Positions 36,860 through 39,471 are shown, counted from the stretch's first letter. The stretch: 64,000 nt of DNA from Chloroflexota bacterium (GCA_030604825.1 JAUVVB010000003.1:4224-68223); one strand, 5' to 3'. The notes: generated by a model not told the origin, from the sequence alone. Numbers and translations: made by a program.

Positions 36860-36919
36860 ACCGCGGCACATAGCAAAATAAGGGGTGGATTGGGCTAGGC
36901 CGGCGTGAAGTATTGTGCA

Positions 36920-36965
36920 TGGTGGGCCGCAAGGGAATCGAACCCCTGACACGCGGATTAAAAGT
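36920..36965 (-). repeat. attR-like displaced 3' half of tRNA-Lys, including CCA
   Basis: Reads ACTTTTAATCCGCGTGTCAGGGGTTCGATTCCCTTGCGGCCCACCA; 38/43 identical to 39400-39442. Confidence 0.92.
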
Positions 36966-37083
36966 GCGTCCGCGCTCATCCCGCCCTATGCCGCCAGATA
37001 CGATTTGGTGCTGTCCCGTCCACCGCCACCGCCCATTTCGTATCTGCTGGTGATGCCCTGTGCTGCCCCGTGCTAACCAGTAT

Positions 37084-37102
37084 GTTTGCAAAATGTTTGC
37101 AA
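37084..37102. repeat. 19-bp arm-type repeat, copy 1
   Basis: GTTTGCAAAATGTTTGCAA, identical to 39362-39380. Confidence 0.9.
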
Positions 37103-37261
37103 CTTTTGGGGGTGAATGACGGGGATGGAAGGCTGGTTAATCACAGGGTGGGGGACTTAGGGAGGATAACCCTGAATTGCTTGTTGAGTGTTTGGGTTAT
37201 GCAAGCGCAAGAGGCAAGGTGATTGTTGATCGAAGGTCAAGTGAAGGAATGTTCCTCTACA

Positions 37262-37927
37262 TCACGACGCCAAACGATCTTCAAGCAACAATAAGTCCGT
37301 GCTATCCAATACTTTATATTCACTGGGATCTAGTCCAGCATTTGTTAGGCGCAGATAGAATGCGTCTCGGTGTATATATGTAATGAAAAAGCCTTCAGCT
37401 TTTCCTCCCGATAGTGTTTCAATTTGACTCAAGTCATCCTTCTGTCTTCTTATGGAATCCCAGTCATCTAATGAACACTTGCTTTGTAGACAATGCCCTC
37501 TCTCTTGACTACAACCAGCAGCATCAATTGAGCCCGATGTCCATACACCAATTCTTACCTGAACTTCTATGTCGGCTCTGGGATATATCTTGCGGCAAAT
37601 GAAATATGAGAAAACTTCTCCGACCGCGCCCCGCAAATGATCAATTTCACTGGAGTCTCCTGCGTAGATTGCATCCAGCTCATTCAAGATCTCAAGTGCC
37701 CTAACATGTGCACTGTGCTGGTTCAAGAACAATTTGGCTTGAGGATGTTGGCGAAACTTTGTGAAACCCTTCCGGCAAAAGAGAGTCCCCGGTATGGTCA
37801 GTAGCTGAAAATCCGGGACACGATAACTACTACCCTCTTCGTCTTTCAGCAGATTGCATAATCTTTCTACCCGCCTCTGATAAGCCTCTCGAGGATTGGG
37901 GCGAATCGGAACTAGGTCGAAAACCAT
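37262..37927 (-). CDS. Putative PD-(D/E)xK-superfamily nuclease (QxK variant)
   Basis: Motif spacing E104 (RGAVGEVF), D135 (SIDAAG), Q148-S-K150, Q162; GGGGAGG RBS. Confidence 0.6.
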   Translation of the reverse strand: MVFDLVPIRPNPREAYQRRVERLCNLLKDEEGSSYRVPDFQLLTIPGTLFCRKGFTKFRQHPQAKLFLNQHSAHVRALEILNELDAIYAGDSSEIDHLRGAVGEVFSYFICRKIYPRADIEVQVRIGVWTSGSIDAAGCSQERGHCLQSKCSLDDWDSIRRQKDDLSQIETLSGGKAEGFFITYIHRDAFYLRLTNAGLDPSEYKVLDSTDLLLLEDRLAS

Positions 37928-37947
37928 CCGTCTTAGCCCTCCCCGTC

Positions 37948-38367
37948 TTACCTTTCCTCTTCGCCCGCGACTTCTAGCCTACCGGGAGTTATGAGAGGGG
38001 CTGCAAAACTCTTGCCCGTCAAAGTACTAAATAGCTCACTACTAAAAGGGAGGATGGTATTTATAACATGAGTTTGGAAGGCATCGTTCTTAAAAATGTC
38101 CCTCGGCATAGGATCTTGAAACGCGAACCGCACCGCATGTGTTACTCGAAACGAGATTCCCTCGGACTTTATTTCCTGCCTAACTTTCAACTTGAAGCTG
38201 GTCTTCCTCTTTGCGCTGAAGGAAAAGGTTATGGAGCCTTCCAAGGGGATTCTCGATTCACTATCCCTTGCAAGCTCAGGTGCTGTAGCCCGATAGTACA
38301 AACTCAACAGCCGGATTCCGGCAATCCTTATGTGAGGGATTTCGCTCGGTGTTTCACGGCTGCTCAT
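37948..38367 (-). CDS. SecB-like chaperone
   Basis: 139 aa; alternating beta-strand pattern followed by NTILPFSSELFSTLTGKSFAAPLITP, matching the SecB C-terminal N..L.P(Y/F)..E....LT......PL..P motif. Confidence 0.7.
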   Translation of the reverse strand: MSSRETPSEIPHIRIAGIRLLSLYYRATAPELARDSESRIPLEGSITFSFSAKRKTSFKLKVRQEIKSEGISFRVTHAVRFAFQDPMPRDIFKNDAFQTHVINTILPFSSELFSTLTGKSFAAPLITPGRLEVAGEEER

Positions 38368-38945
38368 CGTGTTACATTTACTTTGTAGGATATTGATACG
38401 CTTCGTTCCGACACGTGAAAACTTGTTCTTTCCGAGCGACCTCTCTCCTCACGTTGAAACGAACGCGTGTAGAACCAAGGAACATCAGACGACCGCTTGA
38501 CCAAGTCGTTGAGTTGGTATGGCATGTCGAGAATATGATCTACCGCATGCGCTATGGTTTCTTCGTCAACCATGTTTAGGGAGGAATTTAGAGCCATCAC
38601 TATGTCTGAAAGCACTGACAGAGTCCTTGGATTATCAAAAACATCTGATTCACAAAATGCATTGATGGCTTCCACTACGTCGCTATGAATCCATCGGCAG
38701 ATATCATCACGACTTTCTGCTATACTGGCTAGCAAATTGTTCTCTACAAGCAAATTGAGCTTAGAGAGATAGTTGAGACCGAGATTGGACATTAGGAAAT
38801 CACGGAATAGTCTGCACACGTCGCTCGTCGGGGTTGAACCCAAAGACATTAACCCCCGGAAGTACATGTTCAAGACTCTTGTGACCCCGTGTTCCTCTGT
38901 AGCACTTACCAGATCACGAGTCTGTTCTAGTTGTTTAGTTGCCAT
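38364..38945 (-). CDS. Helical hypothetical protein with ChAD-like C-terminal tail (putative antitoxin)
   Basis: GAGGTG RBS; ATGA overlap with the SecB-like gene; Ser/Thr/aromatic-rich tail PWFYTRSF...TSFHVSERSVSISYKVNVTR. Confidence 0.55.
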   Translation of the reverse strand: MATKQLEQTRDLVSATEEHGVTRVLNMYFRGLMSLGSTPTSDVCRLFRDFLMSNLGLNYLSKLNLLVENNLLASIAESRDDICRWIHSDVVEAINAFCESDVFDNPRTLSVLSDIVMALNSSLNMVDEETIAHAVDHILDMPYQLNDLVKRSSDVPWFYTRSFQREERGRSERTSFHVSERSVSISYKVNVTR

Positions 38946-39361
38946 GACTCACCTCGTATCTATCGTGCTTGTTTTGTAACAACTAAGGAAATGTCGCGAC
39001 TGCCTGCTATGCAATCGCAAACAATCATAAGTGCGAGTACGCATTAGTTGAACATTCTTGCAGCTAATATTAAACATAGAATCCGATAAATGTCAATCCG
39101 TCTTTGGTCCTAAGAACTGTGAGACATACAAGAGAGGGTTTCGCACATCCCTAATTATTATTGCCCAGATCGGCAACCCCGTATATAATGGCGGAAGGGG
39201 AGGCATACTAATGAAGGGTGCTGGGCGGCACCCCTCATCTCCTGTCTTAGACTCCCTTCACGATCTCCTCCGCCTCCCGCAGCGCCTCCGTCTCGTCTGG
39301 GAAGAGGCTGCCCTGAATCGGCGGGCGGCTGCCGCTGCCCCGGTCAGTGGCGGATGAATTG

Positions 39362-39380
39362 GTTTGCAAAATGTTTGCAA
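39362..39380. repeat. 19-bp arm-type repeat, copy 2
   Basis: GTTTGCAAAATGTTTGCAA, about 20 bp downstream of the tRNA 3' end. Confidence 0.9.
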
Positions 39381-39399
39381 ACCGAGGGCAAACAGATAG

Positions 39400-39471
39400 T
39401 GGGCCGCATAGGAATCGAACCTACGACACGCGGATTAAAAGTCCGCTGCTCTACCACTGAGCTACCGGCCC
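39400..39471 (-). tRNA. tRNA-Lys (UUU), CCA not encoded
   Basis: GGGCCGG TA GCTC AGTGGTA GAGC A GCGGA CTTTTAA TCCGC GTGTC GTAGG TTCGATT CCTAT GCGGCCC A cloverleaf. Confidence 0.93.

Follow-up and report, generated by a model that had tools for sequence, protein, structure and literature searches.

Toxin-antitoxin-chaperone (TAC) modules embody a recently understood form of phage sensing, in which viral structural proteins titrate the SecB-like chaperone that keeps hold of a labile antitoxin. To our knowledge, the chaperones of the TAC modules described so far are recognisable SecB homologues, and their toxins (HigB, MqsR, HicA, CmdT) act on translation. In the published gene order the TA pair comes first and the chaperone third. 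The dependence of TAC antitoxins on SecB-TA is conferred by ChAD elements, which as published are C-terminal, aggregation-prone and aromatic. The ChAD of Mtb-HigA1 contains two motifs, 108-WHRLSSYR-115 and 137-WARHISVR-144, situated 29 residues apart, and its Y114 is essential; in E. coli HigA, aromatic motifs recur about every 30 residues, and the prediction is that they extend the SecB sheet by further beta-strands. In HigBAC and CmdTAC, the ChAD faces competition for the chaperone from a tail or capsid protein of the phage. In CmdTAC, the antitoxin CmdA consists of two helices and a long unstructured C-terminus held by the SecB-like chaperone, which doubles as the phage sensor.

The architecture of such a chaperone is illustrated by Mtb-SecB-TA, in which four strands, each 13-16 residues long, precede a helix of some 30 residues, and an extended segment runs back along this helix (PMC6377645). 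In the case of the export SecB, the sheet carries an acidic cluster (D20, E24, E77) that docks the C-terminal zinc finger of SecA (PMC6377645).

The locus presented here lies in a window of 64,000 nucleotides, by which we mean the whole stretch of DNA that was analysed, and consists of three genes, A, B and C, read from one strand (Table 1). The model we favour, to which we assign a probability of about 0.55, is that B is the dedicated chaperone of a mobile TAC-like module that combines an antitoxin (A), a chaperone (B) and a nuclease toxin (C).

Table 1. Features of the A-B-C locus and of its two ends, in window coordinates
Feature	Position	Strand	Basis or remark
Displaced partial tRNA-Lys 3' half, anticodon loop to CCA, at the far islet end	36919..36975	minus	direct repeat
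Exact 19-bp direct repeat GTTTGCAAAATGTTTGCAA, copy 1, just inside the islet end	37084..37102		100% identity
Gene C (221 aa, predicted PD-(D/E)xK fold; proposed toxin/effector)	37262..37927	minus	ORF call
Gene B (139 aa, predicted SecB-fold protein)	37948..38367	minus	ORF call
Gene A (193 aa, no recognisable family; proposed antitoxin and chaperone client)	38364..38945	minus	ORF call
Imperfect inverted repeat after the candidate promoter	38994..39020
Candidate promoter TTGACA-18-TAATAT (10/12), about 120 nt upstream of A	39067..39096	minus	no excess of such sites over shuffles
Exact 19-bp direct repeat, copy 2, 19 nt downstream of the tRNA-Lys 3' end	39362..39380		100% identity
tRNA-Lys(UUU), intact, integration target at one islet end	39399..39471	minus	ARAGORN; Rfam tRNA 66.5 bits

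An earlier note on this DNA had proposed that the central gene codes for a SecB-like chaperone carried by an island. The reading frame it indicated is exact and belongs to a conserved family. The start codon of B overlaps the stop codon of A as ATGA. When 1.84 billion cluster representatives are searched exhaustively with HMMER, the family comes to 19 clusters, of which 16 reach E<=1e-10, with proteins that are nearly all 131-148 residues long; the homologues are 28-57% identical and keep both their length and their position in a three-gene cassette. A word-index search of 5.8 billion proteins with B returned B itself alone. The Pfam profile of SecB (PF02556), by which the note had suggested that B be checked, yields no match at E<=10 for B or for any of the 23 family members, and the profile of the B family recovers no SecB chain among the PDB sequences. 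More generally, A, B and C give noise matches only when compared with Pfam, NCBIfam, PADLOC and PHROGs, and phmmer and profile searches of the PDB sequences with the same three proteins return nothing meaningful. The 19 clusters found, together with the missing PF02556 match, indicate that B is a real and conserved gene of a small family, distinct from the very large SecB family.

The composition of B also sets it apart from the export chaperone. Its isoelectric point is 9.69 and that of most of its relatives lies between 9 and 10, whereas that of E. coli SecB is 4.26; its four strands contain two acidic residues against ten basic ones, forming a basic sheet, unlike the acidic sheet of SecB. 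In the family alignment P107, E111 and P124 are invariant, and P128 is conserved with P124 in the C-terminal tail.

The AlphaFold2 model of B, computed from an alignment of 23 sequences (mean pLDDT 82.5, pTM 0.74; pLDDT 75-82 over all five models), predicts four strands at residues 14-27, 43-51, 57-68 and 71-82, a helix at residues 95-120 and then an extended tail. The four segments named as strands in the earlier note (IRLLSLYY, ITFSFS, FKLKV and FRVTHAVRF) all fall inside these predicted strands. The last residues, 121-139, are coil in the model, and no alpha2 helix is predicted in the 19 residues that follow alpha1; alpha2 is untraceable in Mtb-SecB-TA as well (PMC6377645).

When this model is compared with the PDB by Foldseek, the top 19 matches are all SecB or SecB-like. 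The best of them is 5mtw, the M. tuberculosis Rv1957 protein with a ChAD peptide (E 6.4e-6, TM 0.60), and the next are the SecB of E. coli (1qyn, 5jtl) and of H. influenzae (1fx3, 1ozb), with TM scores of 0.51-0.66; normalised on the query, the scores are 0.51-0.64 and at least 0.56 except for 1fx3_B, and normalised on the target they reach 0.66. Two streptococcal SecB-fold proteins without known function come after the SecB matches. Among the predicted viral structures of BFVD, the best two matches are siphovirus proteins named 'Preprotein translocase subunit SecB' (E 1.5e-6, TM 0.63), followed by uncharacterised Gordonia and Corynebacterium phage proteins. The structural comparison is thus the point on which the SecB proposal of the earlier note holds best, SecB being at the head of both libraries and no other fold matching better. 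The hotdog-thioesterase fold was considered for B and ruled out, since it appears in the PDB search first at E>0.02 with a TM score of about 0.3. The SecB-like fold of B is well supported by these predicted structures.

The earlier note had matched residues 103-128 of B to the helix-loop of SecB. The register of this match is correct, and its support at the sequence level is weak. The E. coli SecB sequence used in the comparison is 100% identical to 5jtl_A. The sole local match found by hhalign pairs residues 96-128 of B with residues 97-130 of SecB, at P=0.053 against E. coli SecB alone and at P=0.0033 against a profile of the E. coli and H. influenzae proteins, a single comparison that is too weak to stand alone; the global alignment of the B profile with SecB is meaningless, the match being confined to alpha1. 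In this weak alignment P107 and E111 of B are paired with P108 and E112 of SecB, in the alpha1 motif NxLFPYARE, and SecB E112 is the equivalent of E143 of Mtb-SecB-TA (PMC6377645). B is a highly diverged SecB fold, and at the sequence level it lies outside any known SecB or SecB-TA clade.

Upstream of B, the ATG of gene A is preceded at 5 nt by the Shine-Dalgarno-like sequence GAGGTGA. The protein is composed of two dissimilar parts, and the scan of its family members against Pfam gives noise only. The body, which covers about the first 150 residues and appears helical to judge from its sequence, is acidic, with an isoelectric point of 4.4-4.7 in all ten sequences; it contains a strongly conserved internal motif, Y-x-S-K-L-N-L-L. 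The tail, made of about the last 44 residues, is neutral to basic and unlike the body in composition, contains four to eight aromatic residues and shows alternating polar and hydrophobic runs such as S-V-S-I-S-Y-K-V-N-V. Two motifs are found in it, SPxIPxFYxHS[FW]xxEE and SxS[LIV]SY. Its F158 is kept in ten of the ten sequences and its Y187 in nine, with a spacing of 29 residues; both are absent from the most distant A, that of locus L097. The resemblance of this tail to a ChAD, its spacing being close to the 29-30 residues of the Mtb and E. coli HigA motifs, is carried by short motifs and is suggestive.

Gene C begins 20 nt downstream of B and its ATG follows the Shine-Dalgarno-like sequence GGGGAGGG. 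Its 28 homologues are 43-68% identical, and E104, E121, Q148 and K150 are invariant among them, with D135 present in 27. The AlphaFold2 model of C (pLDDT 93.2, pTM 0.90) predicts a helical N-terminal region (residues 1-95, one short strand and five helices), with no Rossmann-like CARF domain, and a core formed by a helix at 92-114, strands at 117-126, 129-139 and 144-150, a helix at 156-172 and a strand at 177-183. In this core the second strand would have D135 at its end and the third would carry Q148-x-K150, so that the conserved residues occupy the canonical helix and strands. Enzymes of the Mrr type are known to have the QxK variant. The top Foldseek matches to the model are VC1899 (E 4e-7), Card1, Can2 and Cdn1 (E 4e-7 to 7e-4), and the further ones are NucS/EndoMS, restriction enzymes, the R2 endonuclease domain, Mus81 and Cas4, all of which are PD-(D/E)xK proteins. 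The comparison of every C family member with Pfam, the Card1 endonuclease family included, gives no match. The model and the conservation together identify C as a predicted PD-(D/E)xK nuclease fold that retains the catalytic residues. Because the model is ordered throughout, without any low-confidence segment, C is an unlikely client for a chaperone.

The island setting proposed in the earlier note is borne out and can be delimited. The three genes occupy a segment whose GC content is 44-48%, against about 59% in the flanks, and which is bounded on one side by an intact tRNA-Lys and on the other by a displaced copy of the 3' half of this tRNA; over 50 nt (36919-36968) the copy matches the tRNA with 86% identity. 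Just inside each end lies one copy of an exact 19-bp direct repeat, and no integrase is encoded between the ends. The locus is a 2.5-kb, integrase-less, low-GC islet inserted at tRNA-Lys, whose sole cargo is A-B-C. Its neighbours are FabF on one side and PyrE with a signal peptidase on the other. The best matches of this FabF are about 60% identical and spread over several phyla, and the flanks share no synteny with those loci. Contigs of a marine-sediment metagenome, probably the sample of origin, tile the islet at even depth; in the reads of that metagenome neither an empty-site junction nor RNA coverage was seen over the islet.

The three genes, which overlap as ATGA (A/B) or are separated by 20 nt (B/C), form a cassette of 1.7 kb that is found again elsewhere. 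In every informative metagenomic locus examined, A, B and C are colinear, in the same orientation, and overlapping or nearly abutting, and the sizes of the components vary little (A 191-202 aa, B 134-146 aa, C 220-243 aa). Even in the most distant locus, where B, A and C are respectively 28%, 35% and 46% identical to the copies of the window, the order is kept. The neighbourhoods of the cassettes are mutually unrelated and most consist of housekeeping genes: one cassette sits between a radical-SAM gene and mfd, and others adjoin an F420 ligase gene or a gene of the metallo-beta-lactamase fold. Two have defence genes as neighbours: one adjoins PIN_4, SNF2+PLD and MmeI-type methyltransferase genes, and another FRG and GmrSD_N genes. 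The GC content of the cassette is lower than that of its flanks in all seven loci tested, over host GC contents of 36-62%. No tRNA lies beside the cassette at the 13 other loci, so that the integration at tRNA-Lys is peculiar to the present copy. The search with the C profile of 185,579 species-representative genomes and of the IMG/VR viral contigs found no relatives, and the cassette is known so far from metagenome contigs alone. These observations define a rare, self-contained and horizontally moving unit.

The components of this unit do not diverge at the same pace. The mean pairwise divergence is 0.49 for C, 0.59 for the body of A, 0.65 for B and 0.69 for the tail of A, an order that fits a constrained enzyme associated with a diversifying pair formed by the chaperone and the tail. 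In a mirror-tree test for joint evolution of the tail and B, the partial correlation of A-tail divergence with B divergence was 0.22 against 0.23.

In the model we propose, the effector is C, a PD-(D/E)xK nuclease whose domain would be Card1/Can2-like and deprived of its CARF sensor. The acidic helical body of A would neutralise C, and the aromatic, beta-prone tail of A would make the antitoxin dependent on B, as the ChAD does for the TAC antitoxins with SecB-TA. The loss of A would follow from the arrest of protein synthesis or from the titration of B, for example by a structural protein that an infecting phage has just made, on the pattern of HigBAC and CmdTAC. The freed C would then cut nucleic acid and provoke the arrest or the death of the cell. 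Furthermore, the addiction created by A, B and C would also stabilise an islet that has no integrase of its own. Three features depart from the TAC modules as published: the chaperone-like gene is in the middle at all loci, A and C are outside the recognised TA families (HigBA, MqsRA, HicAB, CmdTA), and B shows no homology to SecB in its sequence. Being basic, B could also have nucleic acid or A's acidic body as its ligand rather than a tail.

The main rival of this model is that the three proteins assemble into a constitutive nuclease, restriction-like or involved in DNA processing, without any TA logic, a complex in which B would be a structural or nucleic-acid-binding subunit, or a chaperone for the assembly of C. 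The strong basicity of B and of its sheet would fit the binding of nucleic acid, and the strict linkage of the genes, the position of C as the most conserved component, the housekeeping character of most neighbourhoods and a gene order different from that of TAC modules would all be natural for such a complex. We nevertheless judge it rather unlikely: the predicted structure of C is compact and confident throughout and suggests no need of a holdase, the composition of A is that of an inhibitor, with its acidic body and dissimilar tail, and the cassette acts as a selfish mobile unit, including as an integrase-less islet. Moreover, those structural neighbours of B whose function has been characterised are all chaperones (SecB, SecB-TA and, by annotation, the top two of BFVD), with the limit that for the weaker SecB-fold matches (2o2a, 2hng and several phage proteins) no function is known. 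It might also be that B is SecB-like and has a client other than A, either the helical N-terminal domain of C or a foreign protein that it would sense without any addiction, A being in that case a regulator or a second effector. In favour of this are the binding of phage proteins by the chaperones of HigBAC and CmdTAC, the strongly conserved internal motif of A, and the most distant A, which is devoid of the tail motifs. This seems an unlikely arrangement to us, given that A and B are translationally coupled by their ATGA overlap, that A alone of the three proteins has a compositionally distinct tail and that no low-confidence segment is predicted in C.

The two remaining alternatives concern B itself. 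The SecB match could be an artefact of an AlphaFold model built on a shallow alignment, the true fold being unrelated: 23 sequences only were aligned, the RMSD is about 4 Å for a TM score of about 0.6, and no significant sequence-profile link accompanies it. The agreement of all five models in their pLDDT, the SecB-specific matches of the two independent libraries, well separated from those of any other fold, and a motif alignment derived from the sequence that falls in the same register make such an artefact highly improbable. That B is a genuine export SecB in the service of the host Sec pathway is barely credible. The shared fold is what it has in its favour, along with the fact that the published TAC chaperones partly substitute for E. 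coli SecB (PMC6377645). Against it stand the lack of a PF02556 match, an isoelectric point of 9.7 and a basic sheet in place of the acidic surface that binds SecA, the alpha2 helix that is not predicted, a low-GC mobile cassette shared with a nuclease and the tiny size of the family, 19 clusters among 1.84 billion proteins. Since it is the properties of B itself that speak against export, the non-export reading needs no assignment of the host. The basic sheet, the alpha2 helix that is not predicted and the operon shared with a putative PD-(D/E)xK nuclease and a protein with a ChAD-like tail favour a TA/defence type over an export SecB. The earlier note had gone further and pointed to the TA/defence-associated SecB clade; the type agrees with our analysis, and membership of the SecB-TA clade at the sequence level does not.

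Returning to the TAC-like model, could the cassette represent a class of abortive-infection system that has so far escaped recognition? We put forward this broader reading tentatively, as a possibility rather than as our expectation. It would be an unrecognised class of TAC modules made of three sequence-dark parts, in which a basic SecB-fold chaperone, predicted to lack alpha2, guards an acidic and possibly DNA-mimicking antitoxin through a ChAD-like tail, until the competition of a phage structural protein frees a CARF-less nuclease of the Card1/Can2 type. Its nuclease-fold effector and its order antitoxin-chaperone-toxin would both be firsts among TAC modules, and it would operate in sediment bacteria that are probably Chloroflexi and hence monoderm. 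If so, the TAC principle would gain an effector akin to the ancillary nucleases of CRISPR systems, a new antitoxin, a different gene order and a SecB-fold family invisible to profiles, and TAC-like modules would be under-counted by genome surveys. It would also mean that a nuclease domain of the Card1/Can2 type can be placed under the control of a protein and not of a cyclic nucleotide. The cassette points in any event to a hidden SecB-fold family.

Among the known systems close to the present locus, that of M. tuberculosis provides the best structural match to B. As in Mtb-SecB-TA (Rv1957/HigC, 5mtw), a long alpha1 helix is predicted in B after four long antiparallel strands, and the C-terminal segment is extended; as HigBA1-SecB, A-B-C is a three-gene operon that includes a candidate toxic enzyme; and A, as HigA1, ends in an aromatic extension whose motifs lie about 29 residues from each other. 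There are also differences. B and Rv1957 are 17-18% identical in the structural alignment, and no relationship between them can be detected by sequence profiles; B, with its 139 aa, is the shorter of the two, basic and devoid of alphaN and of the beta3-beta4 insertion, its partners are not HigB and HigA, and the chaperone gene is in the middle and not last. In relation to the export SecB (1qyn, 1fx3), B shares the predicted fold (TM 0.51-0.66) and the weakly aligned alpha1 motif N-x-L-(F)P-[YF]-x-x-E in the same register, and departs from it by the lack of a PF02556 match, by its basic character, by the alpha2 that is not predicted and by its mobile-cassette context.

CmdTAC (E. coli ECOR22 PD-T4-9; Vassallo 2022, Nature 2024) resembles the model proposed for A-B-C in that its toxin and antitoxin lie outside the classical type II TA families, and with this precedent a TA unit need not belong to a classical family. 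CmdT is an mRNA ADP-ribosyltransferase, whereas C would be a PD-(D/E)xK nuclease; CmdC is a recognisable SecB homologue, whereas B is not recognisable by its sequence; and the order T-A-C is replaced here by A, B (chaperone) and C (toxin). As for the nuclease, C shares with Card1, Can2, VC1899 and Cdn1 the predicted PD-(D/E)xK core, whose first helix bears an acidic residue, whose second strand has D at its end and whose third bears (E/Q)xK. These CARF-nucleases are proteins of 340-440 residues, whereas C, with its 221 residues and its QxK variant, has no CARF domain and would presumably be controlled by A and B instead of by cyclic oligoadenylate.

The islet, the low-GC segment that carries the three-gene cassette, is located at tRNA-Lys(UUU) (window 36919-39471), covers 2.5 kb and is devoid of an integrase. 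The displaced tRNA 3' half shares with the intact tRNA-Lys an 18-nt core from the anticodon loop. Both sides of the T-stem differ, being GTAGG/CCTAT in the intact gene and AGGGG/CCCTT in the displaced fragment, and the 3' terminus is CTA in the former and CCA in the latter. The exact direct repeat found near the islet ends is itself internally tandem, being built of TTGCAAA(C) units, and the spacing of its two copies from the tRNA sequences is unequal (19 nt versus about 110 nt). Three contigs of the source metagenome agree with the window from 37070 rightwards and depart from it to the left, so the repeat motif may be present in other contexts too.

The GC content rises to about 65% in a tract of about 120 nt (window 39247-39369) that separates the low-GC cassette from the tRNA. 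The sole ORF of this tract is 40 aa long, and the tract may be the leftover of an earlier, larger element at tRNA-Lys. The inverted repeat upstream of gene A, which encodes the proposed antitoxin, could act as an operator or as a 5'-UTR hairpin.

Features of the islet and members of the cluster at locus L005
Feature	Window position	Strand	Remarks
Displaced tRNA 3' half	36919-36975		one end of the islet
19-bp direct repeat, exact	37084-37102 and 39362-39380		GTTTGCAAAATGTTTGCAA; just within both islet ends
Imperfect inverted repeat	38994-39020	minus	10 bp, 7-nt loop; between promoter-like site and gene A start
L005, PIN_4 protein			444 aa
L005, unknown protein			266 aa
L005, SNF2+PLD helicase-nuclease			1176 aa
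L005, MmeI/Eco57I-type methyltransferase			more than 1100 aa

In one metagenomic copy, L005 (3139-10493), the cassette is followed by a defence-type cluster. In another, L099 (243-2939), the genes that come before it are one with an FRG domain, one of the GmrSD_N (DUF262) type and two paired genes of 117 aa each, of which one is a DUF5658 member. The window's nuclease-fold protein C (37262-37927), the proposed toxin, has a pI of 5.9, versus 8.2-9.6 in the 11 other homologues computed, and its catalytic residues are intact.

The Foldseek matches of the model of B, the SecB-fold protein, in the BFVD library of predicted viral structures include unannotated SecB-fold proteins of Gordonia phage JuJu and Corynebacterium phage Juicebox, whose hosts are monoderm actinobacteria. 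The cassette is therefore not the sole case of a SecB-like fold outside diderm hosts.
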